A stretch of 57,883 nucleotides of DNA, the filler included, from Catajapyx aquilonaris (Eukaryota): NCBI GenBank assembly GCA_000934665.2. It is 2 parts of 2 records of this genome, joined end to end, with 100 filler letters (N's around TTAATTAATTAA, not from the genome) between each part and the next. Parts side by side here need not be neighbours in the genome. Positions count along the whole stretch, not along the records: positions 28,952 to 57,883 come from JYFJ02004863.1; 1 more part is not named here. One strand, given 5' to 3'. The notes beneath the pieces were generated by a model. It was not told the DNA's origin and did not search any database. It saw only the letters and a program-made list of their open reading frames with translations. Positions 28,852 to 54,031 of this stretch are shown one piece after another (positions within the stretch are counted from its first letter, which is position 1; each line of letters starts with the position of its first letter). Position numbers and translations under genes: made by a program.

Positions 28852-28951
28852 NNNNNNNNNNNNNNNNNNNNNNNNNNNNNNNNNNNNNNNNNNNNTTAAT
28901 TAATTAANNNNNNNNNNNNNNNNNNNNNNNNNNNNNNNNNNNNNNNNNNNN
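28852..28951. other. Assembly/scaffolding gap with artificial spacer
   Basis: 44 N + TTAATTAATTAA + 44 N = exactly 100 bp; the next contig begins with GATC. Confidence 0.9.
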
Positions 28952-31190: not shown

Positions 31191-34100
31191 TCATCTGTGC
31201 CTTCTAACAACATGAAGTTTTAAAGTCCCTGACCGAGTAAACCTTTTCTTGCAAACCTGGCATCTGTATGGCTTCTCCCCCGTATGGGTTCTTATGTGAG
31301 TATTGAAATTTCCTGACGCACTAAACATTTTCTTGCAAACCGGGCAACTGTATGGCTTCTCCCCCGTATGGGTTCTCATGCGTTTATTCAAATTTCCTGA
31401 AATACTAAACTTTTGTTTGCAAATTATGCAACTGTATGGCTTCTCCCCCGTATGGGTTCTCATGTGTTTATTCAAATGTCCTGACTCGCGAAACTTTTTC
31501 TTGCAAACCAGGCAACTGTATAGCTTCTCCCCAGAATGGGTTCTCTTGTGTTTATTCAAATCACCTGATCCACTAAACTTTTGTTTGCAAATTATGCAAC
31601 TGAATGGCTTCTCCCCTGTGTGGGTTCTCATGTGGAGATTCAAATTACCTGATCTACTAAACTTTTTCTCACAAACCTGGCAACTGAATGGCTTCTCCCC
31701 TGTGTGGGTTCTCATGTGTTTATCCAAATCACTTGATCCACTAAACTTTTGTTTGCAAATTATGCAACTGAATGGCTTCTCCCCTGTGTGTGTTCTCATG
31801 TGGAGATTCAAATTACCTGATCTACTAAACTTTTTCCCACAAACCTGGCAACTGAATGGCTTCTCCCCTGTGTGCTCCCTCATGTGCGAATTCAAATTTA
31901 CTGACTGACTAAACTTTCGTTTGCAAATTATACAACTGAATGGCTTCTCCCTTGTGTGCACCCTCATGTGTTTTTTCAAATGTCCTGACTGACTAAACTT
32001 CTTCTTGCAAATCTGGCAACTGAATGGCTTCTCCCCCTTGTGAACAACCTTCACATGCTTATTCAAATATCCTGTTAGACTAAACTTTTTCTTGCAAATC
32101 TGGCAACTGAATGGCTTCTTACCTGTGTGAAGCCTAATGTGATTATTCAAAGTTCCTGACTCACTAAACTGTTTCTTGCAAATCTGGCAACTGTATGGCT
32201 TCTCCCCTGTGTGGGTTCTCATGTGTTTATTCAAATTTCCTGAGTCGCTAAACTTTTGTTTACAAATTATGCAACTGTATGGCTTCTCCCCTGTGTGGGT
32301 TCTCATGTGAATTTGCAAATTACTCCAGAAACTAAACTTCCTCTTGCAAATATGACAAACCTTCCTCCCGAAGTGTTTCCCTTTGTGCATGTCTTGCCGG
32401 GTCCCATTCTGCATGTTGTCTTCAGCCCTTTTTCCCTGAAATAAATGCAAGTATACATGAAGGGAGATGTTGGGGCATAGTTTTACAATCACACAAGATA
32501 TTTGCTGCGGCATTTCATGTGCAATGGGCCACCTTTTCCCTTCATCCTCGTAATTTTCATTACAAGAATTCTTGCAGGATTACTTTTGCAGTGGTCCACC
32601 ATAATATTTAAAGGGACACGCCACTCAAAATACAAGTGGGTGTCTAAAAATCAGGCAAAAAATCCTGATTCCGAGAATGCGATCCTTTTTTCTTTGAGGC
32701 GAACGGTAATCCGAGAAATAAATCTCAAAGTAGGCCGGCTGCAAACCCCCTCCCCCTCCAGTCTCGCCCACACCTCCCCCGGCCACCTGGCGGCTGCCTG
32801 AGGAAGTTGGAAATTACTCCGTCCCCAACAGCGCGAGTTTGAAATGCAGTTCCGGGTCGGATATTACTGGCTGCTGCCAATGCATATGTTGTCACCGAGG
32901 TGTTACTTTCCGGACCTCGCCTTTGCTTGGCCCCGCCGGTGGCCTACATCTGTTGCTCCCGCATACACCAATTTAGTCGCAATAGTGCTTCAAATTGGAA
33001 TTAAGTCATTGAAACAGAGCCATTAGCAAAATGTTCGGTCCACACACATTTTAGCTGCTATTCTCAAACCGATGTGCACTGGGGAAAAGAGGTGCATCAG
33101 GAGATATGTCAAACATGGTCATTGGGCTCGATGGCCGAGGAAACATTACCTGTGCATCAGTATTGGACACATCAACAGTGGATGTTCCGGTGCTGGTTTT
33201 CATGTCTGATGTCCACTGGGGGGAGGGGGGTGCAATAAAATATACGCACATTGACGCAGCGCCACATTATTCCTACCTCCATCAGTGTTGGAACAGCATT
33301 AGGCTTTAGTTTCCGCCTCTTCTGTTCCGGTCTGTAGGGGCCATCCATAAATTACGTAACGCTTTGGGGGGCAGGGGGGGTCGACGCCAGCGTGACATGC
33401 CGTTACAATGCGGAGGGGGGGTCCGGCCGACCGTTACGTAATGCCATAATTTAAATACAATTAATTGGTAAATTCCATGTCATAACGTAAGTTACGCGTT
33501 ACACGGGGGTAGGGGGGGGTGTCAAAAAAGCCGAAAATCAGCGTTACGTAATTTATGGATGGCCCCTAGGGAAATAGCGACTGCCTGTGAAAGTGATCCA
33601 TGCACACCTGATGACTTGACATGGGTGTATACGTTGGTGGCAAATTCAAGGCTTCTCGCCATTGCCGCATCAAATCCTGACGCTCGCAAGGAACGTACGT
33701 CACTCGCTCCAACCGTTTCCTATGGCGCTTACAAATAAACTACACAGAACGGGCCACCACCATTGCCTTTCTTGCCCATGATGCTACTTGCTTCCAAGCC
33801 CGCCTCGATATGCCAGACTGGAAGGCCAGAAATGATAAACCCCCCTGCCGAAGTGCTAAACATAAACATGTGTCGTCTTCCAGTCGTTCCCTCCGGGCGT
33901 TTGGTCATCGTCATGGGGATCTGATGCGGGAGCAACACATGTAGTCCACCCGTAAACAATTAGGGGCCAAACAAAGGCAAGGTCCGGAAAGTAACACCTC
34001 GGTGACACCATATGCATTGGCAGCAGCCAGAAATATCCGACCCCGAACTGCATTTCAAACTCGCGCTGCTGGGTAGTAACACCCAACTTCCTCAGGCAGC

Positions 34101-37100
34101 CGCCAGGTGGCGAGTATCCAACTTCCCCCGGTGGCCGTGGGTGAGGAGGGCGGCTCCACGCTCGATCAGAAGTCGAATTTATTCCGACTTTCGTATCTTC
34201 CCCTGTCATTACCGTTCGCCTCAGAGATAAACGGATCGCATTCTCGGAATCAGGATTCTTTGCCTGATTTTTAGAGGCCAACTTGTATTTTTAGTGGAGT
34301 GTCCCTTTAATAATATACAGGGTGTTTATTGTAACTCTGCAAAGACTTTCAGGGGTAATAGAGGGGACCAATACAAGTATTTTTGACATAGGAACCCGTG
34401 TCCGGAAACGCCATCTAGAGGGGGTTCATGGACGAGGAACGGGTGCGCTCACACGCGTCAGGTGAGAGGCGCTAGGCGAGCGGACTGTTTTGTTGATAGA
34501 TGGCACTCGGATAGTAACCAACGATGCGATGTGTCATAACGTGGCAACAACAGAGCCATCTAGAAACTAAAGTCCGCCTCCTAGGAGACTCGCGGATAGT
34601 CAACAGCGGTTCTGTTGTTGCCAGGTTATGGCGTATCGTGTTGTTGTTTACTTACAACGACGCGATACGCCATTACCTGGCAACAACTGCGCGCCATCTA
34701 CCAACAAAACAGTCCGCTCTCCTAGTGCCTCTCGCCTGACGCGTCTGAGCGCACCCGTTCCTTGTCTATGAACCCCCTCTAGATGGCGTTTCCGGACACG
34801 GGTTCCTATGTCAAAAATGCTTGTCTTGGTCCCCTCTATTACCCCTGAAAGTCTTCGCAGAGTTACAATAAACACCCTGTATAATAATAATAATTTGTAC
34901 CCCGTGCTAGAGCCATGGGCCCTCTTAGGGGGTGGGATACCACCATTTTTTTAAAAAATCTGGAACTCTTGCTTTCGTTTTTACTTCTCGTATATGGGGA
35001 TGGGATAGGGACGGAAGGAAGCGGCTGTGGCCTATAATTACAGACACGACCCCGGAATTTTCCTGGTGAGACCATGGGAAACCACAGAAAACCACGCTCA
35101 GGGTCGGCAGCCACCAGGATTCGAACCCACCTCCCGATTAGCAGTCAGATACCATATCCCCTCCACTACCACTGCTTCGGTCTCCATAATATCTAGTGTT
35201 TCTGGAAACAATTACCAGCATAACACGGGACATCCTGTATTAAGATATCATAATTGCAGCAGTTATGTTAGCTGCTATTTACTTGTACTAAGGTCATTTT
35301 CTCCACCCAGTTTTAAGGACGAAGCAAAAAGAACCACAGGAAAGCAGTGCATAATAATTTGTGTATTTTATTTCAGATTTTTATTGGTCATTTTATTGAA
35401 GTTCATTGTCTCAAATATGATTTGGTCTAGAGGAGTGCAGTTATGTAACCTCCTCTGCCACTCAATATTTCATTTGCTGTGCTCTGGCTGGGAACCAGTG
35501 TTTGTTTCCCTTCCACTGGAAAATATTTGGCTACGTTATGATCGCATTTAAAAATTGGACACAATACTAGCAATACTACATTTACGATATAATCTCTTGA
35601 ACTTTGATGCAGAATGAAGCCAGAGATGGCCCAACTCTGCACGAATAATGGTGGGAACCCCGGGTGGGCATTGAACCTGGGACCCTCATATCCGTGGTCG
35701 CGCGCGTTACAGTGGCGCCACTTCATCTCCCAATCCATCCATTCAATTCATTCATCAATTGTACCACTGTAATAAATGGGTACCCTACTCTGCCGTCCCG
35801 CGGAAAAATGCCATATCTGCAGGTACGGCTTTTTTTCCGCGGGACGGCACAGAGTTTGATATCAGAAAAAACACGATCGAAAACGATAGCTCCTCAACTA
35901 AACCGTGTAAGTGCGTAAAAAACACATTTCCCCATGTCTTAGAGGTCGCTAATTACGATTTTAAGGTTATTTTGACCCTGGACCTACAGGGTGTACCAAA
36001 AAGTCCCCTTGGAATTCAAGAACTTCCAGAAAAAAACACAATAAGTAGGTGTAAATAACAATTCCCGATGCTTTCGCGGTCACTGATTTTGATTTCAAGG
36101 TTATTTTGAATCAAGACCTACAGGGTGTACCGAAAACACTGTCGAATTTAATAACTTGTAGGATAAATGGTATAAATGATTACAAATAATGTTAATTGAG
36201 GGGGTTACAAATAGAATGAAATCATTTATTTCTTTACTAATAATTTTTAATTTTTATGAAATAAAATTTTAAAAATAGCTTGATTTTTTTGTTGTTCGTT
36301 TGATAAATCCTATCCTGCAAAAGCGGCTCCACAAGACTCAATCATGAAATTGTTGTTATGGTGATTGGTGACCTTCAGAATGTACTGTAAATAAGACATT
36401 GGTGCAATAAGTCCTTAAGTCCATTGAAGTGAGTTTGGAGATATTCAACAAAAACTGTTTATCTTGGTTCATGACAATCTAAGGACAACTAAAATTTTGT
36501 ATGTCATAACAGCCCCTATTACCTTCACAACTGGATATGTTTGACCGATTTCAAAAAAGTAACGGTTTTGCAAAAAAAATTAAATAGGAAGTGGAGTTAC
36601 CTTGTTATTGCACAAAATTTTTGTTTCATACACCACAAAGCTTTATTGAATCTTGCCACACACCTTACAGCTTCCTTACACATCATCCTCAGCATCTGAG
36701 TCATCACTCTCATTCTCATCTTTCGAATTGACAAGTTCTTGGTAGTACCACATGTCACATTCTGGTACATACTTTTGCGCCAACTTCATGACATATGCAT
36801 ATTTATTTACATTCAGGGGCAAGGGCCCATTGTAGGCCCGCACAGGTTGTATGTCACAGGGCTTGTGAATATTCCTCTCCAACACGAAATGGCAAGGAGG
36901 AACATCTCCTGAATGTGATTCAGACACATACACCTCATGATGATGGCTCGAACTCATTTCAAATCTTTTGTATTTTGAAATAGCAAACACATCTTTTAGT
37001 CCAGGCAGATTTGTATTTTCGCTCATATTGCGTGTTAATTTTGATCTGTTTGTTGGATGTTGTTAAGAATAATGAGAAGTTTCAAAATCGACTTGTCGCC

Positions 37101-40100
37101 ATTTCCCACCCGGCATATTACGGCCGCCATCTTGGAAAAATGGCGGAAAAAACAGGGTTTTCTGTTTTATCTTTTTAACCGTTCATTTTCTGAAAAATAA
37201 TTAGACATTAAACATGACGGTAATTATATGCCGCATCGAAGAGTACTCTATCAATATTATGATAACTGTAACCGTTCAGCCAGAATCGAGCGGACAATGA
37301 CCATTACTACCTTCGCCTGGATTAGCGCGGGAAGAATTGTTCAAAAATTCCGTGCCGCTGTAATTTTAATGATAAATTTGATCTGTTTGTGGGAAGTTGT
37401 TAAGGACAATAAGAAGTTGCAAAATCAACTTGTCGCCATGATTTTAGCTACCTTATTACAACCGCCATCTTGGAAAAATGTCGGCAAAAACAGCTATTTT
37501 TGCTTTAATTTTTGAACAGTTCATATTATGAAAAGACAACTAAAACAAAAGTTAAAGAGCATGAGATTTACAGTAAATTTGTACTTAACAATGTTTTGAT
37601 AAGTGTAACTGTTCAGCTGAAATTCATGATTTAAGGTTTTTCCTATCACAGGATTTCTAGTAGACTAAGAGCATAAGAAACATATTTTAAAATGGTGTAA
37701 TACATATTCCAAGTTATGAATTGCATTCTGCTGACTATTAGGCAACGTATGAAAATTTATCTCAAAAGTTAACAGAACAACTTGGTTGTTTGCTGGTCAC
37801 ACACTTTAATAATAAAAAAAATGTCACTATATACACTCGTAAATGGACCTGATATTTATTGCGCCAGGCAATAATTCTTGTGTTACAAAACTTTAGCTTG
37901 TTCCCAGTGTTTCGACCTCAAACATCGATGTAAGAAACTCAGTTTTATAATCATAACAGTGTACACTTCATAATAGATAATATACATAGCGTCATAGGCC
38001 TACTGTATAGTAGGCTATGCAGTAGTTCTATCCTGCATACAGAACTCCTCATCGTCCGTATCTGCATTGTGCATTTACTGTAAATCTCATGCTCTTTAAC
38101 TTTTGTTTTAGTTGTCTTTTCATAATATGAACTGTTCAAAAAATAAAGCAAAAATAGCTGTTTTTGCCGACATTTTTCCAAGATGGCGGTTGTAATAAGG
38201 TAGCTAAAATCATGGCGACAAGTTGATTTTGCAACGTCTTATTGTCCTTAACAACTTCCCACAAACAGATCAAATTTATCATTAAAATTACAGCGGCACG
38301 GAATTTTTGAACAATTCTTCCCGCGCTAATCCAGGCGAAGGTAGTAATGGTCATTGTCCGCTCGATTCTGGCTGAACGGTTACAATTATCGTAATATTGA
38401 TAGAGTACTCTTCGATGCGACATATAATTACCGTCATGTTTAATGTCTAATTATTTTTCAGAAAATGAACGGTTAAAAAGATAAAACAGAAAACCCTGTT
38501 TTTTCCGCCATTTTTCCAAGATGGCGGCCGTAATATGACGGGCGGGAAATGGCGACAAGTCGATTTTGAAACTTCTCATTATTCTTAACAACTTCCAACA
38601 AACAGATCAAAATTAACACGCAATATGAGCGGAACGGATTTTTTGACCAAATCTGCCCGGACTATTTCCTGCTGTTCTTAATGGTTTTTTTAAAGAAAGG
38701 AGCCAGAGATGACTTGTAATCCAAAATCATATCTTGCGTCACTCTTTCAACTACAAACTTTTTGCATGCCTTTGAAACCAGTTTAAACCACTCACTAGGT
38801 GTGTACAATTTATCTTTTTTGCGCTTTTCCTTTTCTATGAGACCAAAAGACCTGTCGCATGGCAGATAACTGTGACCTCTTTCAGGAAAGTGCACAAATA
38901 TGTTGTCAAAACTACTTTTCTTCACTTCCTGAAAGAGATACTGGAGCACAGTGCTATTCTTATTTTGTGCAGCACAGTTGTCACAAAATATGTATAGGTC
39001 TCGTACGGAACTGCTCACGTGATGTTGTAGGAAGTGATTCAAAAATGAAACAGACTCATTGGGAGCCTTGTGACCAACAGTCTCGTCAAACATGTACATG
39101 ATAGATTTTCCTGACTTGCCAGAGCAGAAGCACTGGTTGTATACCCAGAGTTGTCGAGCATAGAACACTTCAGTTGTTGTTAGTAGTGGCACTGGTAAAT
39201 TTTGCTGATAATCAAAGGATATGCATTCCACCCTATCATCAACTTTTGCTCAATGCCAACTTGGCCTTAAGATCAGTGTAAAAAGACTCAGCTTTACGCA
39301 AATGAATCTTCCTCTCTAACTCTATGGCATTTTTTTTCCACATCAGAAATGTCAGAGTCCAGTTTCTTTTCATACACATCACAATTCATGCAAGTGTCAC
39401 TGCGTGGCTTTCCAAAGCTGTATTTAAAATGTGTGATAAAATACCTGTAGTAGAAGTCATATGACACTACAGGCTTAATAGTTTTTCCACATTGCTGTAG
39501 CAAGTACTGGTCTGGCTCATGCTTCTCCAGGTACAAACTGTACATCTTATTAATGCTGAGCTCTGAGCTCAGATACTTCACCTTCAGGTTTTTTGCTCTG
39601 CTATAATGAGAGGTTCTAACTGGAAATCCCCTGATGTGGGAATCTATTTGAGCCTGTATGGAGTCTTCTATCTTGTTAGGACGATTGGTGTGTTTGCCAC
39701 GTTGATCCAAGGGGCTTGCAATGTTTTTTGATGCATACTTAGTCAGACGCTCCACTCTTCCCGCACCAATGCCATGCAGATGGCAGAACGCCACCTTGCA
39801 TACAATGACCTGCTTTGTGGAGAGTCTCATCTAAAAAGAGTTGGAAAATTACATGTGTTAAATAGCTAAATATATTGTACTGCTCTTGTTTTAGCACAGT
39901 ACCATTTTTGCTATGTTAGGCCTACATCATAGGCTACCTACCTCATAGTGGTAACTGGCAACTCTCTGGCATCTCTCAGATGTTGCTGTCTCCTCAGCAG
40001 TCCCACCTCCATTAGCTGGAATCTTGCAAGGTCTCCGCCTAATGACAGACAGCAAAATAATACCCACAAGAAAATAACGAGACAATATTACTTATGGTCC

Positions 40101-41654
40101 AAGCATATATTTTTACCTCGCAACAGGTGATGCTCTGATCAATCCCGTAAGATAGGCATCTTGCACGTTCTTCTCCGCCAGTTTGTTGAATGTCTCGATT
40201 ATGTCCTTTTTTTCTTCTCCCGAGAACTTGGTCATGCATTTCCTCCGACAGTTGCAAGGAGATCCCGTTTTCCTCCTGGGCTGCAGCTTTCCGGTGGTGC
40301 TGACATACTCTCTTCCACATGCGATGTTCTTTTTGCGAACGTTTCTTTCCCACTTCCCCTGTTGCCTCACCCGCTTCTTCCCCTTTCCTGCTGAGGAGGA
40401 CTCGTCACTTGAAGTGTCGGTATCATCTGGTGGATGGTACTCTTCATCCATGTCTGTTACACTGCTCAGATCACGCGAGCTAGTACTTTGGCGCAAGAAC
40501 CAGGTAACTCCTGGAATTACCAGGTTATTGCCCCAAACAACCTGCTGTTGTAAGTGAATCCTTGCGCCACGAAGTGGAGAACTGTGGTAGTTGCATTGTT
40601 CTTGCACCAAAGTGTGCCCTGTACCACATAGATGGCGTAGGTGGTCTTAACTCAATTTGTCCCAAAATTGGAGTTAAGGACTTCTTGCACCAATGTCTAC
40701 TACTAGAAAATCACAATCCAGCTGCTAATATCTGCTACCCGCAATTTTATAAATGAAAACACCTGAGAGGTGCATTCCAGGGAGGTACAATTTAATGTCC
40801 TGAACTGAATTTCAAAGATAATTAATTAATAACTTCTGCCCTTTTCAGAAGAACAGTGTGTTTTCTAAAGTTTCGAGTGCCTACATAACAACAAACTACA
40901 TAATTTAAACAGCAATCGCGATTTTGTGAAGAAACAAAATTTTCAACTACTTCCACTATTTATTCCATGAGCTCTCAGATTTGATGATGTTTTTGGTACA
41001 GGGTGTATGTCCGGGTTCAATGTAGCTTAAAAATAAAAATCAGTGTTCCCCAACACATTGGAAAATATTTTTTCACCTATCTGTACTTATAATGTAGATT
41101 CTACAAGTTCTCAAATTCGGTGGTCTTTTATGGTACAGTACACCCTGTATGTCCGGGTTCAAAATACCCTAAAAATCAAAATTAGGACCCCGAAAGCATC
41201 CAGAAATGTTATTTTCACCTACTTATAGTGTTGTTTCTAGAAGTTCTTAAATTTCATGCCGAATTTTTGGTACACCCTGTGTGTCTAGGTTCAAAATAAC
41301 CTAAAAATTGAAATCAGCGACCCCTGAAACATGGGGAGACTGGTGTTTTACGTACTTATACGGTACTTATAAGGAGCTATCCTTTTCGATCGTGTTTTTT
41401 CTGATATCAAACACTATGCGGCAGTAGGGCCTACTAGTGACTAATACCATAGACACACTGGTTTGATTTGAACCTAACTAATGTAAACCTAACCTAACTA
41501 AAAGAACTAACACATTGATATATTGCTTTACCTGAAGCTCTGGATAAATGTGCTTCTTCAACATGTGCCTTTCCAGGTCCTTCTTTGTGGCAAATGCACC
41601 GTTGCAATGGTCACAGTAGAGAAGCTGATACAGCAGGATGAAGGGTTCCAATAT
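31191..41654 (-). CDS. C2H2 zinc-finger gene 1 (one-finger exon 41654-41532 plus 14-finger exon 32435-31191; 5' exons not identified)
   Basis: Array exon has 14 CxxC-x12-Hxxx(x)H units with TGEKP linkers; finger 12 has H->R. The upstream 123-nt exon (ILEPFILLYQLLYCDHCNGAFATKKDLERHMLKKHIYPELQ) has AG/GT phase-0 ends and matches the paralogue. Confidence 0.8.
32612..34306 (-). mobile_element. Kolobok-like non-autonomous DNA transposon with a THAP-domain remnant
   Basis: TTAA-agggacac...gtgtccct-TTAA ends and ~330-bp imperfect TIRs. Minus strand 33779-33277 reads CVVY/CKRH...MRQWREAL...VCMDHF...KLKPNAVPTL. Confidence 0.75.
33337..33566. mobile_element. Small MITE (PIF/Harbinger-like termini) nested in the THAP remnant
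   Basis: TIR ggggccatccataaattacgtaacgct / agcgttacgtaatttatggatggcccc with a TA(G) duplication. Removing it restores the THAP frame. Confidence 0.8.
34318..34879. mobile_element. Tc1/mariner-type fold-back MITE
   Basis: TA-cagggtgtttattgtaactctgc...gcagagttacaataaacaccctg-TA with near-perfect ~200-bp inverted arms. Confidence 0.85.
34940..35182 (-). mobile_element. tRNA-derived SINE (same family as 46437-46690)
   Basis: Minus strand reads gaccgaagcagtggtagtggagggg...gactgctaatcgggag..ggttcgaatcc (B box), then gtggttttctgtggtttccca...cacagccgcttcctt. Confidence 0.75.
35783..41428 (-). mobile_element. Sola1-like DNA transposon with a spliced, disrupted transposase
   Basis: Long imperfect TIRs (gtttgatatcagaaaaaacacgatcgaaaa.gatagctcct plus repeated acagggtgtac units) at both ends. 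Transposase pieces at 40610-40117, ~40038-39941, 39830-38665 and 36993-36676 carry VCKVAFCHLHGI, SHYSR, PRSDTC, ISFDYQQNL, DNCAAQNKN and GHSYLPCDRSFG. Frameshifted near 39250-39330. Confidence 0.75.
36997..38664. mobile_element. Academ-like non-autonomous element nested in the Sola1-like transposase
   Basis: TAGTCC...GGACTA termini, 3-bp TTT duplication and ~580-bp near-identical TIRs. Removing it restores ...KNSRK|DVFAISKY... in frame. Confidence 0.75.
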
Positions 41655-43273: not shown

Positions 43274-46252
43274 GAGGCATTCCACGTCAAGCGGGCCACC
43301 TTTCCGACAAATCTTTGAGGACCTTGACCAAAATTTAATGACATGTACTACTCATCGACCTATGCAGGAACCCAAATTATTATACCTCTGCGTTGCGTGG
43401 TTGCGTATCTACAGGGTGGGCAAGTTGCTATTTTTCACTCATTTTACGCTGTCAGGGCTTTGAATGGAGGCCCGTAACTTCTGAACCCCTGAAGTGATCC
43501 CAAAGGTGATTAGTGATTTGGACAGGTCTGGAAACGCCCTTTAATACTATGACAGCAAGAATTTGAAAAATGAAAATTGCGATTTCTAAATGGCGACAAA
43601 ACTTTGATTTTGATTTAGCTCAAACTTGGACATTTTTGATATTTTTTGAATGTCTCTTAAAACGAAACTTGAACGATCCTACTGATATTTCCGAAAACTC
43701 TCGAGGACCCTTTTTTGATTTTTACCCGCTACAAGCTGCGATAGGACCCCCCCCCCCCCGGCCCCTCTCTTATTCCCTCTGCCTTCCTGCCGGGCGGAGA
43801 CCCATTAATATATTGCGCTGACGTGGATCGTCTCTGCTGCAGCTGGCTCACTGGATCTCACTTTCTTACCTGCCCAACTGAACGAAGTAAACGTGTGATA
43901 GGCACATAACATAGACACTGCCCTTACCTACGAGTAGAATCATCAGCAGACACTAACATTGGGAAATATGACGAGAGTAGTATTCGGAGCAATACAACAA
44001 CAACAACAACTTGATCTGCAAACCTATGCACTTGTCCTATATCGACTCACTCCCAGAATTTATTTAGCTGAACTGATAACCTCTATGATCATTTAAAAAG
44101 AAACTAAAGGGTCCGTTTATAACTAGCCCATAATGTTAAGTGAAGAAAACTCAGTTCACATCGCAAATAAAATATAAGTTGGTGGTTCTTACTGCTTAAT
44201 TAAGAACTTTCCCGCCCTATAGTGACGTACAATGTTGATGATAGCTGCTAACTCCTGTTTAATTCAATATTAAAACTATCATGCTTTAATGCTAATCAAG
44301 ATAATTTAATTCTATTGAGTATGATGTGAGGGTTGGATATGTGTAGTGAGTGTGACATACCGGTATTGCATTTGTTGTAAATACGATTTTAGCCGTGAAC
44401 GGGAAAGGCCTTCTTAATCCGTTGCCAGTCTCAACCCTGTAAAACGCAGAGAGCAATATTGTTTATTAACTTTATGAACCTTTATATTTAGTGCCCTTTT
44501 AAATGATCATAGAGCTTATCGGTTCAGCTAAATAAATTCTGGTAATGAGTCGGCATAATCAAACGCATCCTCATGGAGGTCAGCCTGGGGCATTACAGAA
44601 TATCTTATAGCATCATCACCGGTTGGGATTTTTTTTAGTCGGTATAGGACAAGCGCATAGGTTTGCAGATAAAGTTGCTGCTGTTGTTGTTGTAATGCCC
44701 AGGGAGTGTTATTCAACTGTTTCGTTCATGTTTGTTGTTCTCGTTCAATGTCATTCAATTGTTTCGTTCATGTTTGTTGTTCTCGTTCTACGTCATTCAA
44801 TTGTTTCGTTCTTGTTATATGCTGTTCATTTGTTTGTTGTTGTTGTCATGTCTTGTTCATTTGTTTTCTTAGTTGTTGATGTTGTTCCATTGTTTTGTAT
44901 ATTTCTGTTGCCATGCTTTTGTCAACAAACTTGACTATAAAAGGAGGTACACTGAGCCTGCGGAGTCAGTCAGTTGCCGGCCTCTGAGGAGGTAACATCT
45001 CCAGAGAAGGCGGAGTCAGTCGCCAGTCTCTGAGGAGCTAACACCTCCAGAGAAGGCACTGACCGGCTTTGCCGAGTATCAGGACCCGATCAATACACAG
45101 ACCATTGTTGTATTATTTACTCCTACCTTTCAGGATTACTCAGTAATTAGGGACAGGTGTCATATCAGGGCCAGCAGGTGTCTGCGTCGCTCAGATATAC
45201 ACCGACCAGTCAAGACTGACCAGTCACGTGTCATGGATGGGCCAGCAGGCATCTGCATCGCCCATACATACACTGACTAGGCAGAAGATATTAGGGCCAG
45301 CAGGCAACTGCGTCGCACTAATATCCGAACCTAACAGTCTTGGCAAAAGGAGGTAACCGGAACAACAGTCTAGTAAGAGCTTCCCTCTCACTAACCAGCC
45401 CAAAGTTAGCGGAAGCCCGAATCGGGGCAAGGTGTACCAAACATGAGTCACTCATTGGTCACCTTTAACTTTACCTATAACTACTTCTAAACCTGGCGTC
45501 ACATTGTTGTTGTTGTTGTTGTATTGCTCGCCGAATACTACTCTCGTCATATTTCCCAATGTTAGTGTCTGCTGATGATTCTACTCGTAGAGTAAGCAGG
45601 GAAGGGCAGTGTCTATATTATGTGTCTATCACACGTTTACTTCGTTCAGTTGTGCAGGTAAGAAAGTGAGATCCAGTGAGCCAGCTGCAGCAGAGACGAT
45701 CCACGTCAGCGCAATATATTAATGGGTCTCCGCCCGGCAGGAAGGCAGAGGGAATAAGAGAGGGGGCGGGCGGGGGGGTCCTATCGCAGCTTGTAGCGGG
45801 TAAAAATCAAAAAAGGGTCCTCGAGAGTTTTCGGAAATATCAGTAGGATCGTTCAAGCTTCGTTTTAAGAGACATTCAAAAAATATCAAAAATGTCCAAG
45901 TTTGAGCTAAATCAAAATCAAAGTTTTGTCGCCATTTAGAAATCGCAATTTTCATTTTTCAAAATTCTTGCTGTAATAGTATTAAAGGGCGTTTCCAGAC
46001 CTGTCCAAATCACTAATCACCTTTGGGGTCACTTCAGGGGTTCAGAAGTTACGGGCCTCCATTCAAAGCCATGACAGCGTAAAATGAGTGAAAAATAGCA
46101 ACTTTCCCACCCTGTGGTTACGCAACCACGCAACGCAGAGGTATAATAATTTGGGTTCCTGCATAGGTCGATGAGTAGTACATGTCATTAAATTTTGGTC
46201 AAGGTCCTCAAAGATTTGTCGGAAAGGTGGCCCGCTTGACGTGGAATGCCTC
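43274..46252. mobile_element. Sola2-like fold-back non-autonomous element
   Basis: ATAT-GAGGCATTCCACGTCAAG...CTTGACGTGGAATGCCTC-ATAT: GAG termini, 4-bp TSD and >730-bp near-identical inverted arms. Confidence 0.75.
44691..45503 (+). mobile_element. Solo LTR (813 bp) inserted in the right arm of the Sola2-like element
   Basis: TGTAATGCCCAGG...CCTGGCGTCACA inverted ends, TTGT 4-bp duplication, TATAAAA at ~44936 and internal tandem repeats. It is absent from the left arm. Confidence 0.7.
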
Positions 46253-46436
46253 ATATGTATAATATAGTAGAACTCTGGTCGTAAGTCAAATAAATTTTAG
46301 TCGTAACCGACCGTAACCATAGTTAGTTAATTATTAGTAACTATGGTTACAACCTGTTATGACGGAAATTTTGACTTACGACATTTGATGAATCCACTCC
46401 CTGCTTTGCAACTCAAGGAATAGATATGAAAATAGT

Positions 46437-46690
46437 GACCGAAGCAGTTTGGTGGAGTGGATAAGGTGTTCGACTGCTAATCGGGAGGTCCTGGGTTAGA
46501 GTCACGGGGTTGGCAATCCTAACCGTGGTTTTCTGTGGTTTCCCACGGTCCCCCGAGGAGAATTCCAGGATTGCTCCCTAAATAATAGCCCACAGCCGCT
46601 TCCTTCTGTCCCTATCCTACCGCAAAAAGCAAAGTAAAAATGAAAGCAAAGAGTTCCAGTGAAAACAAAATTGGGATGAACTCCCCCTCT
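46437..46690 (+). mobile_element. tRNA-derived SINE
   Basis: A-box-like tggtggagtgg, tRNA-Ser(GCT)-like loop gactgctaat, degenerate B box ggttagagtc, and a body shared with the copy at ~35000. Confidence 0.75.
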
Positions 46691-49191
46691 AAAGAGCCGC
46701 CGACTGATAACAGGGTATGAATAATATGAAAATAATGTGATACAGACGACTCTGGATATAACAGCCTCGGCTTGAAAGGTTAGGCCGAGCGCAAATCATG
46801 CAATGAAGGTGCGACGCCGTCCCGATTTGTTGCATCGAGACAGGATGCGACCGCGCAGCTTTTGGACAACGATAAGTCACACTGCACACCCGACACAAAT
46901 CATGCAATTTCGATGCAATCTCAGGCCCGGAATTGCAGTACAGTACTCCATAATTTTAGGCAAGTAATAATGCTCACAGTTTATGAATGAGGTCATTCTT
47001 GATCACTGTTTGTGTACTATCCACGTTCCACCAGTACTGGTACGATGTCACCAGTAAGTCACATACTTTGATACAGTATAGCCTAGTATTTACTCATTGC
47101 CAGCAAGTCACAACATTAGCCTCACTCGTAGGGCCCCCAGGTAACTGGGCAGCATGCTCTTAAGTTAAGACGGCCCTCCTTACAACACTTTGTATCGAAC
47201 ATTCTACGAGATTCACTCCAACCTGGCCGCAGGCCACTGCCATGTTGAAAATGAAATGCGATGTGGGGGAGTTTTCAAGCAGTGCTGGAAACCTGCAACA
47301 TCCCTGTGACTTCTCAGGTAAGCGGCGTGCGCATCCTGCGCATGCAACCAGCTACTGCAACATCCCACCGACAGTGCATGATCTGCGCTCAGCCTTAAGT
47401 CCCAGCTAACTTCCATAATATGGTCTGTGTACCTGGCTATGGGATGGGGATGGGCGGGGATGGGTCTCTCCTCGGGGCACCCTCTCCTCTAACTCTGCCC
47501 CTTTGTCTGGAGCCACCAAGCAGGCAACAATCCTTTCAATTCCAACCAGGCCTCGACAACCAGTGACAATCAACAGGTTTCCTTGTTCCTTTCCTCACAG
47601 ACAAAGACAACCTGGACTATGGTCCGATGGTTTACTTGCGGAATACATCGATATATATCGCCACTTCCTTATATCGATAGTATCGGATATCAATGGCTGA
47701 AAATCAGATATCATGCTCTTGGTCACCAGGTGGTAAATCAACATTTCTCTTAAATTTGCAGATGCAAAATAGCAGTAGTTTTAAGTGGGCTACAATTATT
47801 AACCCTTAACTTGCAACCTCATTTAGCTTAACTGGTAACGTGGGGTCCTTTTTGGACGTTTTTTTCGATTACAAACTTACATTAACCAAACCATCAAACT
47901 ATAAATGCTTCCTAAATTCGGGGGGGGGGGNGGGACTATAAGTGACAGATTTTTAAAAATGTTGACCTCCTCTGACCCTTGGTTGACTCGCATGAGGCGC
48001 CGTTTACTGTTTACCCGTATCCCTTCGTGACCCAGCAGCTGTAATGGCAGTCTCCTTATTATGTTGCAGAACTGAAACTGGATCTGGGTGACTATAATGC
48101 TTGACTTCCCGTTGGTGTGAAACCTGTGTATAGCGGAATCGCACGTAATGGAGAGGTTTCCTTTACACATTCGACACGGAATTCATGTACGTGGCCTACT
48201 GCGGATAAGCCCGTTCCCAGGAAAAATTCCGCAAATATGGACAAATTTCCGTTCGAGGACCCCATTAGATGCCACATTTTCTTGAGTTTCACTTTAGCGA
48301 ATACTGTATTACGTGGTATGGGGAACAACTTCCACGAAGATTTTGATATTTATCCCATCCGTCACACTCACAAGGTCAAAGGTCATGTCACTGACCTCCC
48401 AATTCCTGTCCGTGGTATGTGCTACTAAAATCAAACAATGCACTGCATGTGGCAGATTCTACAGTCACACTGCTGTGAACAAACTGGCATTATGGGGCAT
48501 ATTCATAACATAGTGTTATTCTGCAGATACAAGACAAAATGTTGTAACATTGGTGGTTAACACTGACCGTCTTTAATGCATTTGATTTCTTCGGGCCTAT
48601 TAACTTCTGTTTTTTTGAAAACAATCACATAGTTGCATAATTATGCATTATTGATATTGCTTTTGGCAACAATTGGAATATGCAGGGTGACATCAGGAAT
48701 TATTTTCCAGGCCAATCTGTCCCGGAACTATCCAATGATTTGCAAGTCCAGAGTTTTACTAACTAAAGTCCTGTTGCACTAACTGTAGTAAGAGTAGAAA
48801 ACTTTTGGATGAAAACAAAACACAGAAAATCCAAATTTCACTGTTACCTCCCAACAGACATGGGAGTTAAAAAAATTTTTCGGTCACTTTTCCAGCCAGT
48901 CGCAGTCGGAGACACTTAAGGTTTTCTGGCCTAGCTGCATACAGACCTAACACAACAAACACGATTACTACTTTCTCTTTTGAATGCAATGTAAATAGGG
49001 CAACATCTACAAACAAAAACTTATCAAGCCACACACCAAGATCAATCCTGGAACATAACCTTTCAGTTGACCAATTTCTTTGAATTATTTACTGAACGTC
49101 TGTTGAAGAAATATTTAATCTGGCAAAGCCTCTCACATCACTCATGTAATTGGTTGCCACTACAACCTGGGAAGAAAAGACATTAATATGT

Positions 49192-49447
49192 CGCATCCCG
49201 GCAATAAGAGGGCCACAAGTCCAACAATGACGATTTTGACTTATTACTAGAGCAGGGTCCATGACCGTGTGCACATTCAGAATGCATATTCTGATTTTAA
49301 AAAATTAATAATTAGTAATTCAGATTATTCGAATGCTGCATCAATATCTGATTTATGATAACACTATACCAACACTATACAACTTTCAAAGTGCTCTCCT
49401 GTGAAATTGACTTTTTGGACTTGTGCCCCTGTTATTGCCGGGGTGCG
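49192..49447. mobile_element. MITE with a 4-bp TSD
   Basis: ATGT-cgcatcccggcaataagagggccacaagtccaa...ttggacttgtgcccctgttattgccgggtgcg-ATGT. Absent at the paralogous site ~30510. Confidence 0.75.
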
Positions 49448-49751
49448 ATGTGCCCTGGCTGTACAATACAGCACACAGGACATGACTTCCTCCTTCTGGA
49501 AGGGAACATTTGGCCCTGTCATCATACCCACGGAGTTTGGTTTTCCTTTTCTCGTGGCTCTTCTTACATCCATCTGGCTGACCAAAACAGTCAAGGAGCT
49601 CCTTGACAACTTAAACCTTACTTTTCCAACCTGAGCCTCAAAAAAGACAAGCGTTTCTACCTACAAATGCTTTATTCAATATTACTATACCAGGTACAAT
49701 TATGATAAATGAACAATAAATGCCCAAGGCTCTCCCCTAGCATGATACTTA

Positions 49752-51107
49752 TAGTCCTGACGTTAAGGGATTCAACCGTGCATTTGGTGAAAAAAGCATG
49801 AAATTTGGTACAAATGTCCCTGAGAGCATACTCTTCAAATTAAGATATGGCGCCACGCCCGTTTTCGCCCAGGAGGCGGGTTGGCTACACTGAAGCGAGT
49901 GACAAGTCTTTTTCTGAGCGAACTACGCTTCCTAGGCGGATATGTGCCAAACAAATGTTGTGGGGAAACATGTATCCTACAAAAAGTGTATAGTAACCTT
50001 TCCACGTACGGTCAGTATTTTCGGAGCTACTGCGACTTGAACCAAATTAAGGGACGAAAAAAAAGTCAACCGTGCATTGGTGAAATTTGGTAAGAATGTC
50101 CCTAAGACCATACTCCTCCAATCCAGATATGGCGCCACGGCCGTTTTCGCCCAGGTGGCCCGTAATTGCGGGTTGGCTACCTTGAAGCGAGTAAAAAGTC
50201 TTTTCTGAGCGTACTATGCCTCTCAGCCGGATATGTTCCAAGCAAACGTTGTACAGAAACATGTACTCTACAAAAAGTATGAAGTACCTTTTCCACGTAG
50301 AGTCCTTATTTTCGTAGCTACAGCGACTTTAAAAAGACTTTTCACTCTCTGAAGGGTAGCCAACCCGCAATTACGGGCCTCCTGGGCGAAATCTGGCGTG
50401 GCGCCATATCTGAATTTGAAGAGTGTAGTCCCTAGGACATTCCTACCATATTTCATGTCTTCATCACCAAAGTGCACTGTTGACCATTTCATCCCTTAAT
50501 TCCATGACTATATGGGTTCAAGTCGATGTAGCTCTGAAAATAAGGACTCTACGTGGAAAAGGTACTTCATACTTTTTGTAGAGTACATGTTTCTGTACAA
50601 CGTTTGCTTGGAACATATCCGGCTGAGAGGCATAGTACGCTCAGAAAAGACTTTTTACTCGCTTCAAGGTAGCCAACCCGCAATTACGGGCCACCTGGGC
50701 GAAAACGGCCGTGGCGCCATATCTGGATTGGAGGAGTATGGTCTTAGGGACATTCTTACCAAATTTCACCAATGCACGGTTGACTTTTTTTTCGTCCCTT
50801 AATTTGGTTCAAGTCGCAGTAGCTCCGAAAATACTGACCGTACGTGGAAAGGTTACTATATACTTTTTGTAGGATACATGTTTCCCCACAACATTTGTTT
50901 GGCACATATCCGCCTAGGAAGCGTAGTTCGCTCAGAAAAAGACTTGTCACTCGCTTCAGTGTAGCCAACCCGCCTCCTGGGCGAAAACGGGCGTGGCGCC
51001 ATATCTTAATTTGAAGAGTATGCTCTCAGGGACATTTGTACCAAATTTCATGCTTTTTTCACCAAATGCACGGTTGACCCATTATTCGTCCCTTAACGTC
51101 CGGACTA
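49752..51107. mobile_element. Academ-like fold-back element
   Basis: TAGTCC...GGACTA termini and TTA 3-bp duplication. Arms of ~560 bp are essentially identical and built from ~300-bp subrepeats. Empty site at ~30700 (tgatactgaattgcacaga). Confidence 0.8.
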
Positions 51108-51577
51108 TTAATTGCACAGATCAAATTGCACACCCTGGTCGTTCAATCTTCACTCAGTTCCTACCCTCCCTTTTCCTTTCGCCATATTCCCCCAATGTAT
51201 ACATGCCACACATCCATCAAAGACGCCCCCTGAACACTTCAGAAAAAAACTAACTACTGTAGTCAACAAGGTGTGTCAATGAGAAAGGTGATTGCTGTGG
51301 ATACGAGACACACAACTGACAAGGTAGCTTTCACATTCATTGTAGGCGTAAGCACATTCCCACACAGTCTCATTTACACATATCAGCACATGATTATATC
51401 CTCTTTGCTGAGTACAAAGTTGGGGTCTATTCCACACTTGGTAGATTCACTTGGTAGATGAAACCAATGATATAGGACTGGTAACTCGGTTCACATCTTC
51501 TGTTTGGGATTCCTCACACCTCATGTAGTCTATAACTACTAATGCAGCACGTGTGTGAATGGGGCCTTAACCAGAAG

Positions 51578-54031
51578 TTACTTTTCACCTCTGTGCATTC
51601 TAACAACATGCTCTTTCAAACTGTCTGCCCGACTAAACTTTTTCTGGCACACCTGGCAACGGAATGGCTTCTCCCCTGTGTGCATCCTCATGTGTGATTT
51701 CAAATGTCCTGAGTGACTAAACTTTTGTTTGCAAATTATACAACTGAATGGCTTCTCCCCTGTGTGGGTTCTCATGTGGTTATTCAAATTTACTGACTGA
51801 CTAAACTTCTTCTTGCAAATTATGCATCTGAATGGCTTCTCCCCTGTGTGGGTTCTCATGTGGTTATTCAAATGTACTGACTGACTAAACTTCTTCTTGC
51901 AAATTATGCATCTGAATGGCTTCTCCCCTGTGTGAGTTCTCATGTGAATTTGCAAATAACCTGACACACTAAACTTTTGTTTGCAAATTATGCAACTGAA
52001 TGGCTTCTCCCCAGTGTGGGTCCTCATGTGATTATTCAAACTTCCTGACTCACTAAACTTTCTCTCACAAATCTGGCAACTGAATGGCTTCTCCCCCGTG
52101 TGGGTTCTCATGTGTTTATTCAAATGTTCTGACCGAGTGAACTTTCTCTCACAAACCTCGCAACTGAATGGCTTCTCCCCTGTGTGGTTTCTCATGTGTG
52201 AATTCAAATTTACTGACCGACTAAACTTTAGTTTGCAAATTATGCAACTGAATGGCTTGTCCCCTGTGTGAACCCTCATATGATATTTCAAACCCCCTGA
52301 TCCACTAAACTTTTTTTCACAAACCTGGCAACTGAATGGCTTCTCCCCCGTATGGGTTCTCATGTGTGAATTCAAACTTCCTGACACACTAAACTTCTTC
52401 TTGCAAATCAGGCAACTGAATGGCTTCTCCCCTGTGTGGGTTCTCATATGTCTATTCAAATCACCTGACCCACTAAACTTTTTCTCACAAACCTGGCAAC
52501 TGAATGGCTTCTCCCCAGTGTGGGTTCTCATGTGAATTTGCAAATTACTCCAGGAACTACACTCCCTCTTGCAAATATGACAAACCTTCCTCCCGAAGTG
52601 TCTCCCTTTGTGCTTGTCTTGCCGGGTCCCATTCTGCATGTTGTCTTCAGCACCTTTTCCCTGAAAGAAATGCAAGTGTACATGAAGGGAGATGTTGGGG
52701 CATAGTTTTACAATCACACAAGATAATTGCCGGGACATTTCCTGTGCCATGGCCCATGGCCCACCTTTTCCCTTCATCCTCGCTAATTTTTATTAAAATA
52801 ATTCTTGCAGGATTACTTTTGCAGTGGTTCATCATAATATGTAGTCTAAGTTATTTCTAATAATGTTACTGTATACTGTATAAAAAATAGAAACTCATAC
52901 AGTATTTTGCCTAATTGTACTGTATTAGCTCGCCTGAAAATTATGCAGGACCAAAAAAAGAAAGGAGAAATATTTTCTTCTGCCGTCTCCTTTTTACCAA
53001 TTTTATACCAGAAAAAGCATATTTATTTTCCCACTGATGCAAAGGTCCAAGAAAATATTAATCTGTTCAGCAGCGTTTACATGTGAGCGAATTGGTTAGC
53101 GAAGTATTCGCCGAACAAAGTGAGTGGTATCAGTTCTGACGTTAAACTCAAGCGAAGCAAAGGCACACAGCGACTGTGTCGAGTTATCAAATGGCCAAAT
53201 GTCAGTGCGTCACAATCTACACCTGTACAACCTACGTTTAACATGTTGCGAGAAACCCAGTCCGGAAATTTGCTATAATATGACCGTGGATCGTTTTCAT
53301 CTGAATGACCCGTATATAATTTTGTCTGGTTTAAGGCAATTCACTTTAAACTGCTTTGTTGCTGGAAACAATTAGTCATAACAGGGATTCTTTCTGTATT
53401 AAGATATAATCGCACCAGTTATGTTAGTTGCTATTTACTTGTACTGAGGACATTTTCTCCACCTACAGTTTTACGGCTGCAGCAAAAAGAAACACTGGAA
53501 AACAGTGCGTAATAATAATTTGTATATTTTATTTCACCTTTTAATTGATCAATTTATTATTCAGTGTCTCAAATAGGATTCAGTCTAGAGGATTGCAGTT
53601 ATGTCACCTCCTCTGCCACTCAATATTTCATTTGCTGTGCTCTTGCTCTGGGAATCAGTGTTTGTTTCCCCTCCACTGCAAATTATATGGCTACGTCATG
53701 ACAGCATTTCAAAGTTGGACACAATACTACCTTTATAATCTCTACAACTTTGATGCATCATGCACAACTGTCTGTTGAATTGAATACATTGCATAATAAG
53801 TCATGTCGTGAAATGCTTGCTGGTACACACCCTTATTCAGAGGCCTTTCTCTGTGATACAAGTTCCAAGCCTAACTAAAATAATTAACACATTGATATAT
53901 TGCTTTACCTGAAGCTCTGGATTGATGTGCTTCTTCAACATGTGCCTCTCCATGTCCCTCTTGGTGGTAAATGCACCGTTGCAGTGGGCACAGTAGAGAA
54001 GCTGGTACATCAAAATGAAGGGTTCCAATAT
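51578..54031 (-). CDS. C2H2 zinc-finger gene 2 (one-finger exon 54031-53909 plus 12-finger exon 52660-51578; 5' exons not identified)
   Basis: 12 intact fingers with TGEKP linkers. Upstream exon ILEPFILMYQLLYCAHCNGAFTTKRDMERHMLKKHINPELQ has phase-0 GT-AG ends. Confidence 0.85.

Follow-up and report, generated by a model that had tools for sequence, protein, structure and literature searches.

We found that the window analysed here, a stretch of 57,883 nt (filler included) from Catajapyx aquilonaris (assembly GCA_000934665.2), contains two neighbouring minus-strand C2H2 paralogues, each consisting of a 123-nt one-finger exon and a large last exon. Very probably, a lineage-restricted poly-C2H2 gene is present here as two tandem paralogous units and evolves in the ordinary animal mode, with no special PRDM9-like system. 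Since the duplication, purifying selection has acted on the small exon and on the backbone of the fingers, the DNA-contacting codons have changed at an approximately neutral rate or faster, and the arrays were rearranged after the gene had been duplicated. Judging from the family, the products would most likely be sequence-specific DNA-binding proteins. The coordinates of the predicted gene parts, flanks and associated elements are collected in Table 1.

Table 1 Predicted features of the two zinc-finger copies and their surroundings, in window coordinates.
Feature	Position	Strand	Basis or remark
Copy 1 3' flank	29276..31190	-	common to copy 2 (48800-49190, 51110-51577); 82-94% identity
TIR-bounded insertion in copy 1 3' flank	29479-30332		inverted repeat I10
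Copy 1 terminal exon	31191..32435	-	ORF, unit table, Pfam; 24-aa linker and 14 tandem C2H2 units
Copy 1 stop codon, TGA	31191-31193	-	
Two-finger 168-bp recent tandem duplication, copy 1	31521..31856	-	units 7-8 vs 9-10, 159/168 nt identical
Copy 1 intron	32436..41531	-	9.1 kb
Copy 1 small exon	41532..41654	-	123 nt, phase 0/0, one C2H2 (HX4H) finger
Spacer between units	41655..48799	.	not similar to the upstream region of copy 2 (3.8 kb); no recognised domain
3-kb element with long inverted ends, in spacer	43265-46261		inverted repeats I3, I4, I6, I21
Copy 2 3' flank	48800..51577	-	common to copy 1
Foldback element in copy 2 3' flank	49772-51077		inverted repeat I1
Copy 2 terminal exon	51578..52660	-	24-aa linker and 12 tandem C2H2 units
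Copy 2 stop codon, TAA	51578-51580	-	
One-finger recent duplication, copy 2	51749..51916	-	units 9 vs 10
Copy 2 intron	52661..53908	-	1.25 kb
Copy 2 small exon	53909..54031	-	123 nt, phase 0/0, one C2H2 (HX4H) finger

In each unit, the phase-0/0 one-finger exon would be spliced in frame to the terminal exon, which carries a short basic linker followed by the TGEKP-linked array. The open frames on the minus strand extend over 31191-32579 for copy 1 and 51578-52789 for copy 2, and the predicted in-frame junction between small exon and array exon uses canonical splice sites in both copies. In copy 1, the acceptor of the terminal exon reads TTTATTTCAG/GG, while the small exon is bounded by the acceptor TCTCATTACAG/AT and the donor CAG/GTAAAG. 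We rejected a single-exon model in which translation would start at an ATG conserved in the tail of the intron; when this tail was read in the array frame, copies 1 and 2 differed by 1 synonymous versus 5 nonsynonymous changes, so the splice model is the better fit. The array exon of copy 2 and the small exon of copy 1 lie 9.9 kb apart on the same strand. No conserved poly(A) signal was found between the two 3' flanks, and no Rfam family or tRNA was found in the window. Elsewhere in the same window, a search with an ion-channel-like ORF at 2-1501 gave no match.

Both array ORFs match C2H2 families alone in Pfam, which bears out the tandem zinc-finger genes proposed in an earlier note on this DNA. 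For PF13465, the scores were 341.8 bits in copy 1 (E 4e-106) and 323.9 bits in copy 2 (E 2e-100) against a cut-off of 40, and for PF00096 they were 226.7 bits (E 2e-69) and 203.5 bits (E 5e-62), respectively, against a cut-off of 25.2. With tandem CX2CX12HX3H units above the curated Pfam cut-offs, the two copies belong to the poly-C2H2 (Krueppel-type) family. Copy 1 comprises 13 intact units and 1 degenerate unit and copy 2 comprises 12 units, and the linker is an exact TGEKP in 9 of 13 cases in copy 1 and 10 of 11 in copy 2. The -1/+3/+6 triplets that the earlier note had listed agree with our translated units in 26 of 26 cases; two irregular units in copy 1 had been overlooked, namely unit 12 (31353-31436), in which the first zinc-binding His is replaced by Arg, and unit 4, a 29-aa HX4H unit. 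In addition, the linker of copy 1 unit 10 is altered to SGEKL and the stop of copy 1 comes three codons earlier than that of copy 2. Given this wear in unit 12, the unit 10 linker and the stop, copy 1 could be decaying.

Tandem Repeats Finder detected 84-bp and 168-bp periods, with 80-82% matches, at 31238-32321 and 51614-52546, the 168-bp period scoring highest. The near-identical, minisatellite-like 84-bp backbone that had been described held in part. The backbone 39-mer quoted in the earlier note was found at 15 sites when up to 3 mismatches were allowed, 6 of them in copy 1 and 9 in copy 2, versus 0 in 100 shuffles; within the window it is confined to the two arrays, but the units are about 80% identical, which makes them minisatellite-like only loosely. 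Protein searches with the copy 2 array returned generic poly-zinc-finger proteins alone, with a best identity of 62% among proteins of 198-630 aa and 56% among those of 631-2000 aa.

The single-finger exon noticed earlier upstream of the array is indeed present in both copies, and the flanks of the two copies align at 82-94%. Between the copies this exon shows 7 synonymous and 6 nonsynonymous differences (pN/pS 0.20, p = 0.003) and a synonymous difference of about 0.30, and the pN/pS values of the other two frames are 0.69 and 1.01. Its reading as an "unrecognised N-terminal module" had to be given up, since the exon encodes a generic C2H2 finger, matching Pfam with E 1e-5 in copy 1 and 2e-4 in copy 2 (1e-5 to 1e-3 overall), and is a start-less, phase-0/0 internal exon, with no conserved ATG in either copy. 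In the Atlas, generic C2H2 clusters alone were returned. When the 41-aa exon was compared with 1.84 billion representatives, 519 matches with E<=1e-3 were obtained, and the best 150 of these were multi-finger proteins aligned mainly over the finger core at no more than 52% identity. The ILEPFILLYQ lead-in of the exon found no relative among these best 150 of 519 matches.

Across the 23 canonical 28-aa units, entropy was highest at -1 (3.19 bits), +6 (2.68 bits) and +3 (2.28 bits), which rank 1-3 of the 28 positions compared, and position 4 came next with 2.05 bits; the contact positions are thus more variable than the rest of the finger, as had been suggested. Differences are 3.4-8.5 times more frequent in contact codons than in those of the backbone. 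For 11 independent nearest pairs chosen by total distance, differences were counted at 30/132 contact nt versus 63/792 backbone nt (odds ratio 3.4, p = 2.5e-6), and for pairs chosen by backbone distance, a pairing that biases the contact/backbone ratio upward, at 50/132 versus 53/792. Unit 9 of copy 1 and unit 2 of copy 2 are identical at 71/72 backbone nt and differ at 6/12 contact-codon nt. No contact enrichment was seen in the three youngest unit pairs, which differ at 2/36 contact-codon nt versus 8/216 backbone nt.

A dN/dS comparison, proposed in the earlier note as a check, gave a mixed answer. The omega of 1.16 at contact codons is far above the 0.26 of the backbone, but it is not significantly greater than 1 (p = 0.53), so that adaptive retargeting is not demonstrated and the change at contact codons may also reflect relaxed constraint. 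Given these changes, copies 1 and 2 should read different DNA sequences. The contact-site share of amino-acid diversity (P) was 0.319 and 0.397 for the two arrays, and both values fall inside the 5-95% range of 120 other poly-zinc-finger proteins (0.21-0.45). Among these 120 unrelated proteins, none of which is a same-species background, 34 score at least 0.319 and 10 at least 0.397. P values of 0.41-0.68 are given for complete PRDM9 orthologues in Table 1 of Baker 2017. Contact-residue turnover is treated as a general pattern of metazoan poly-zinc-finger genes in passages of Wells 2023 (PMC10547256) and Najafabadi 2017 (PMC5588721), the latter also describing fingers that are often rearranged and contact residues under selection in expansions that arose independently. 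Given such generality, the pattern is not special to PRDM9 or KZFPs, to whose mode of evolution it had been likened.

The order of the fingers has changed as well. The first fingers of copies 1 and 2 are 95% identical and the last fingers 79%, while the interior units show no collinearity between the copies (in 1838 of 2000 shuffles of the unit order, the score equalled or exceeded the real one), and the view that positional correspondence is confined to the first and last fingers was upheld. The nearest neighbour of the 21 interior units lies in the other copy for 11, in the own copy for 9, and is tied for 1. Units 9 and 10 of copy 2, the one-finger duplication, differ by 1 nt, in the +3 codon (His/Asn). 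The pattern in both arrays is one of gain, loss and possibly exchange of 84-bp and 168-bp units, presumably through unequal crossing-over or conversion.

Transposon insertions at 32608-34310, 34307-34890 and 35847-41419 have enlarged the intron of copy 1, in which the inverted repeats I11/I8, I5 and I7 are found; the insertion at 35847-41419 contains DUF7869 ORFs, with PF25273 on 38662-39249. Alignment to the copy 2 intron is limited to 32436-32610, 35197-35611 and ~41493-41531, and the copy 2 intron has an insertion at ~52844-53356 that is absent from copy 1. Neutral intron sequence aligns between the copies at 83-88%, and non-coding divergence amounts to ~6-21%. Young transposon insertions crowd the locus, their inverted repeats being 97-99% identical. 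Among the 22 inverted-repeat pairs in the window, none brackets 29276-41685 or 48800-54062, so neither unit resembles transposon cargo.

No KRAB, ZAD, SET, BTB or SCAN domain was found in the window. The earlier statement that KRAB, ZAD and SET are absent was confirmed by Pfam, which gave no match to KRAB (PF01352), ZAD (zf-AD, PF07776), SSXRD or PR/SET in the array ORFs or in 120 upstream minus-strand ORFs of at least 25 aa. These ORFs, 36 chosen from 62 of at least 45 aa plus 84 of 25-44 aa, come from the 7.1-kb upstream region of copy 1, which lies wholly within the window, and from the 3.8 kb between copy 2 and the window end at 57883. Neither copy has a start codon, promoter or 5' exon that we could identify in the window; the start codon and any effector head would sit in exons not recognisable within it. 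In both copies, the similarity between them ends ~30 nt upstream of the small exon, on its acceptor side, and over the 100 nt beyond, identity is 55%, a level that does not amount to true homology. When one upstream region was searched against the other by blastn (word size 7) and tblastx, nothing shared came to light.

Since the similarity ends so close to the small exon, copy 1 may lack a promoter and serve as an alternative tail for the gene to which copy 2 belongs. The two copies would then be start-less 3' cassettes of one gene, with the head exons located upstream of copy 2 and probably past the window end. Copy 1, as a promoterless duplicate, would be reached by read-through and splicing past copy 2, and the isoforms would share one head but end in one of two distinct DNA-binding arrays, a design known from lola in flies. 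In favour of this, similarity is lost just upstream of the acceptor although neutral intron is still alignable, the 7.1 kb and 3.8 kb upstream regions lack common DNA or protein similarity, both small exons are phase 0/0 without a conserved ATG, the copies follow each other on the same strand at a distance of 9.9 kb, and purifying selection is apparent on both. However, no head was seen in the window, lola-type cassettes are much shorter, with about two fingers, and the lost similarity could equally well be explained by a transposon insertion just upstream of the copy 2 small exon, with the remaining intron outside the window. We regard this arrangement as somewhat unlikely, though worth keeping in view. 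A bolder version appears less likely still from the sequence at hand: start-less duplicated tail cassettes of one gene with a possibly uncatalogued head, whose reshuffled fingers would provide two specificities in a long-array lola design, possibly directed against transposons.

The transposons at the locus bring to mind a TE-tracking repressor family, analogous to KZFPs or FiNZ-ZNFs, in which an unseen effector would recruit silencing and the contact changes would record a transposon arms race. Contact positions that vary most, units that turn over and young insertions that crowd the locus are consistent with it, and a TE-ZNF link across animals is argued in parts of Wells 2023 (PMC10547256). 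Nevertheless, we consider it improbable, as no effector domain was found in the window, contact omega does not significantly exceed 1, P stays within the ordinary poly-zinc-finger range, two copies and no more were seen, and genes in a TE-rich genome commonly have transposons in their introns. A role as PRDM9-like specifiers of meiotic hotspots, with the array as a coding minisatellite, would fit the 84-bp-period array in one terminal exon, the isolated upstream finger and the high contact-site diversity. Such a role is nonetheless scarcely credible here, given the absence of KRAB, SSXRD and PR/SET from the 120 upstream ORFs, the identity of about 80% between units, the presence of two diverged paralogues instead of a single gene, and P values of 0.32 and 0.40 against 0.41-0.68 for complete PRDM9 orthologues in Table 1 of Baker 2017. 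Finally, copy 1 or both copies could be decaying duplicates, in which case contact variability would consist of old between-finger differences. The degenerate unit 12, altered unit 10 linker, earlier stop and 9-kb TE-filled intron of copy 1 point in this direction, as do the failure to find a 5' exon in the window and the youngest duplicates without contact enrichment. Against this, the frames of 1.1-1.25 kb are both open despite the non-coding divergence, backbone omega and small-exon pN/pS are low (0.26 and 0.20), and the splice sites of both copies are intact, which makes decay a decidedly improbable account.

As tandem paralogues of a lineage-restricted poly-C2H2 gene, which is the reading we prefer, the two copies provide one more case in which an animal poly-zinc-finger gene was duplicated in tandem, gained and lost fingers, and changed at its DNA-reading residues. 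Finger shuffling and change at these residues are already known to be typical of animal poly-zinc-finger genes, and a specialist would not be surprised; the result helps the annotation of a poorly sampled animal genome. It would carry more weight if the arrays were alternative ends of one gene, or if a new effector head were attached to them, and either outcome, if true, would extend lineage-specific KRAB-like or lola-like systems beyond vertebrates and flies.

The two copies share features with several known systems. PRDM9 has an isolated finger upstream of its array, and the copies resemble it in this separate finger, in an 84-bp-period array in the last exon and in contact-residue diversity. 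They depart from it in that KRAB, SSXRD and SET are absent from the window, the units are about 80% identical, there are two old paralogues, and P does not rise above the bottom of the 0.41-0.68 span for complete orthologues in Table 1 of Baker 2017. Tetrapod KZFPs likewise occur as tandem paralogues, carry a long array of TGEKP-linked C2H2 units in a single terminal exon, gain and lose fingers, and vary most at -1, +3 and +6, and the top database matches include many KRAB-ZNFs at ~45-55% identity. Unlike KZFPs, the two copies have no KRAB (PF01352) in the window and an extra single-finger exon upstream of the array, and two copies were seen. As lineage-restricted tandem poly-zinc-finger genes with variable contact residues, they are also similar to the FiNZ-ZNFs of cyprinid fish and the ZAD-ZNFs of arthropods, as described in parts of Wells 2023 (PMC10547256). 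In contrast to these, no ZAD (PF07776) or conserved short N-terminal sequence was identified in the window, and the sole upstream exon that is conserved encodes yet another C2H2 finger. Compared with Drosophila lola-type loci, the window contains no BTB or other head and each tail would carry 12-14 fingers plus a link exon; as at those loci, the units are start-less, tandem and on the same strand, open at a phase-0 acceptor, and lose their similarity just upstream of it.

Both zinc-finger loci lie in animal DNA with a G+C content of about 42%, and the Pfam matches of their two long open frames are to C2H2 zinc-finger families only, far over the cut-offs. Tandem Repeats Finder reported periods of 84 bp and 168 bp, with 80-82% matches, spanning both arrays, and the 39-nt backbone string that the earlier note had seen recurring was found 15 times at ≤3 mismatches, against 0 occurrences in 100 shuffles. 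The open frames of copy 1 and copy 2, as we call the two minus-strand units, contain 14 and 12 finger units of 28 residues, respectively. Compared with these translated units, the -1/+3/+6 triplets listed in that note were right in all 26 cases, although the list overlooked that the first zinc-binding His of copy 1 unit 12 is replaced by Arg, that copy 1 unit 4 has 29 residues and an HX4H pattern, and that the stop codon of copy 1 comes three codons ahead of that of copy 2. Self-comparison of the window showed the loci to be duplicates of one another, most likely paralogues that each form a unit of a poly-C2H2 DNA-binding gene. Searches of protein collections brought up no close relatives. Judging from the family and from the exact TGEKP linkers (9/13 positions in copy 1, 10/11 in copy 2), the products would bind DNA, and the different contact residues suggest that the two arrays would read different sequences.

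Features of the two zinc-finger units and of the surrounding window
Feature	Position	Strand	Basis
Copy 1 long open frame	31191-32579	minus	ORF
Copy 2 long open frame	51578-52789	minus	ORF
Small exon, 123 nt	41532-41654 (copy 1), 53909-54031 (copy 2)	minus	splice sites, Pfam, pN/pS
Matching block	29276-29482, 30331-30513, 30706-32610 (copy 1); 48800-49190, 51110-52843 (copy 2)		self-comparison
Matching block	35197-35611 (copy 1); 53357-53757 (copy 2)		self-comparison
Matching block, contains small exon	41493-41682 (copy 1); 53870-54059 (copy 2)		self-comparison
Copy 1 intron insertion	32608-34310		inverted repeats
Copy 1 intron insertion	34307-34890		inverted repeats
Copy 1 intron insertion, 5.6 kb	35847-41419		189-nt inverted repeats; ORFs including a DUF7869 match
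Private insertion, copy 1 3' flank (absent from copy 2)	29479-30332		119-nt inverted ends
Private insertion, copy 2 3' flank	49772-51077		foldback-like, inverted repeats
Ligand-gated channel-like ORF, 500 aa, entering from window edge	2-1501	plus	PF00060, E 6.5e-11
Protein-kinase gene fragments in older duplication	7071-7580, 21622-22149		Pfam Pkinase
Third kinase ORF	15659-16810		Pfam Pkinase
PP1-type serine/threonine phosphatase, two exons	26739-27795	minus	Metallophos, STPPase_N

As the earlier note had proposed, variation among the units is concentrated at the contact positions. In the 23 canonical units, entropy was highest, of all 28 positions, at -1 (3.19 bits), +6 (2.68) and +3 (2.28); helix positions -1, 2, 3 and 6 averaged 2.39 bits, compared with 0.62 at all other positions and 0.78 at non-structural backbone positions. 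Across all unit pairs, pN was 0.49 in contact codons and 0.13 elsewhere. When 11 independent nearest unit pairs were chosen by total distance, 30/132 nucleotides differed in contact codons versus 63/792 in the backbone (odds ratio 3.4, p = 2.5e-6); choosing them by backbone distance gave 50/132 versus 53/792, a contrast that this mode of selection inflates. The three youngest pairs showed no enrichment (contact 2/36, backbone 8/216). Omega was 1.16 for contact codons and 0.26 for the backbone. Since contact dN did not significantly exceed synonymous divergence (p = 0.53), relaxed constraint at these codons is possible; what drives the change could be an arms race with transposons, diversifying selection of another kind, or drift.

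The arrays correspond only at their ends, a point on which the note was right: the first fingers of the two copies are 95% identical and the last 79%, while the interior units were no more collinear than chance, 1838 of 2000 shuffled orders scoring at least as high. The nearest backbone neighbour of the 21 interior units lay in the other copy for 11, in the same copy for 9 and was tied for 1, and distances were equal within and between copies (10.7 vs 10.5 differences); interior units are thus mixed between copies. Duplication at the scale of units is recent in both: a single nucleotide, which falls in the +3 codon, distinguishes copy 2 units 9 and 10, and copy 1 units 7-8 and 9-10 are identical at 159/168 nt. 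Copy 1 unit 9 and copy 2 unit 2 have 71/72 backbone nucleotides in common and differ at 6/12 contact-codon nucleotides. True orthologues would be expected to differ at about 8 backbone sites by a hand estimate from the small exon (pS 0.30, pN 0.06), so that this single difference, in the best of many pairs, is at most suggestive of exchange between copies.

Upstream of each array exon lies a small exon with strong splice sites (acceptor TCTCATT(A/G)CAG-AT, donor CAG-GTAAAG, hyphens marking the exon boundaries), which is in phase 0 at both ends and continues in frame into the array exon; the acceptor of the latter, TTT(A/C)TTTCAG-GG, lies at 32435 in copy 1 and 52660 in copy 2. What had been taken for an unrecognised N-terminal module is in fact a single HX4H C2H2 finger according to Pfam (E 1e-5 in copy 1, 2e-4 in copy 2). 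The two small exons differ by 7 synonymous and 6 nonsynonymous changes, and because pN/pS is 0.20 (p = 0.003) in this frame, whereas the two alternative frames give 0.69 and 1.01, it is a constrained coding exon. It has no conserved ATG, and a rival model in which the array exon begins at an ATG within retained intron sequence is a poor fit (1 synonymous versus 5 nonsynonymous differences in that stretch); one or more additional 5' coding exons are therefore required. None was found among the scanned upstream ORFs, which comprised 36 in one set (31 of the 62 listed minus-strand ORFs of ≥45 aa, plus five others) and all 84 of 25-44 aa. Neither set matched KRAB, ZAD, SET, BTB, SCAN or THAP, in agreement with the note's remark that no KRAB, ZAD or SET domain is visible. 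No blastn or tblastx match connected the upstream regions of the two copies (7.1 kb for copy 1, 3.8 kb for copy 2). The window edge upstream of copy 2 (56501-57883) is richer in G+C (53-55%), its translated frames are of low complexity and rich in proline, and no domain was found there.

Some 30 nt upstream of the small exon acceptor, similarity between the units stops sharply; identity over the adjoining 100 nt is 55%, whereas neutral intron sequence elsewhere is still 83-88% identical. Because the small exons are start-less and symmetric as well, copy 1 may be a duplicate that lacks a promoter and is joined by splicing to exons lying upstream of copy 2, though an insertion just upstream of the copy 2 exon would explain the break equally well. 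The intron is 9.1 kb long in copy 1 and 1.25 kb in copy 2, owing to inverted-repeat-bounded insertions in copy 1. The largest of these encloses ORFs at 38662-39249, which matches DUF7869, and at 39294-39830 and 40113-40646, which have no Pfam match; inside this element sits a foldback (37017-38634) of 98% identity. The private element in the copy 1 3' flank encloses a 194-aa ORF (29630-30214, plus strand) with no Pfam match at E≤0.1, which by eye we take to resemble the C-terminus of a Tc1/mariner transposase. Two foldback-like elements, 43265-46261 and 49772-51077, have long arms that are 97-99% complementary and are probably young insertions. No inverted-repeat pair surrounds either zinc-finger unit, which makes the units unlike transposon cargo.

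Identity between copies is 94.9% in the linker and first finger, 89.4% in the small exon, 83-88% in the intron pieces, 81.9% in the proximal 3' flank and 78.6% in the last finger. The ~100 nt that end the intron (32436-32610 vs 52661-52843), like the linker and first finger, are more similar between copies than the remaining intron and the flanks (about 82-88%): the final 78 nt of the intron are 92% identical, including a run of about 45 nt at 100%. The patch could reflect gene conversion, or a splicing or regulatory element under constraint. N runs at 28852-28895 and 28908-28951, just past the 3' end of the duplicated block, were called assembly gaps, and a single N stands at 47931 in the spacer.

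Elsewhere in the window, a second, older segmental duplication pairs 2377-8885 with 17547-23708 at 73-79% identity. The channel-like ORF, which had no match in a word search of 5.8 billion proteins, is probably a divergent ionotropic receptor. The phosphatase exons sit just downstream of the zinc-finger units in the joined window, on the other record.

The defining head domains of KZFP, ZAD-ZNF and PRDM9 proteins were not found in the ORFs scanned within the window. By the Baker-type measure, contact sites account for 0.319 of the diversity in copy 1 and 0.397 in copy 2, whereas the values in Table 1 of Baker 2017 include 0.41-0.68 among complete PRDM9 orthologues and about 0.19 among those with SET only. 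In 120 poly-ZF proteins of other animal species, picked by similarity to the query, the median share was 0.276 (5-95% range 0.206-0.446), with 34 proteins scoring at least as high as copy 1 and 10 at least as high as copy 2. Cnidarian PRDM9 is the subject of a 2026 preprint (10.64898/2026.09.07.749791). Wells et al. 2023 (PMC10547256) report poly-ZF ORFs numbering from hundreds to thousands among vertebrates, arthropods and molluscs, and Najafabadi et al. 2017 (PMC5588721) describe independent expansions in which fingers were often rearranged and contact residues came under selection; on these accounts, the pattern in the earlier note is the general one for the class. The observation in the note is correct; its PRDM9/KZFP-like interpretation holds for the mode of evolution but overstated how special it is, and the two copies are a further case of poly-ZF evolution as already described.
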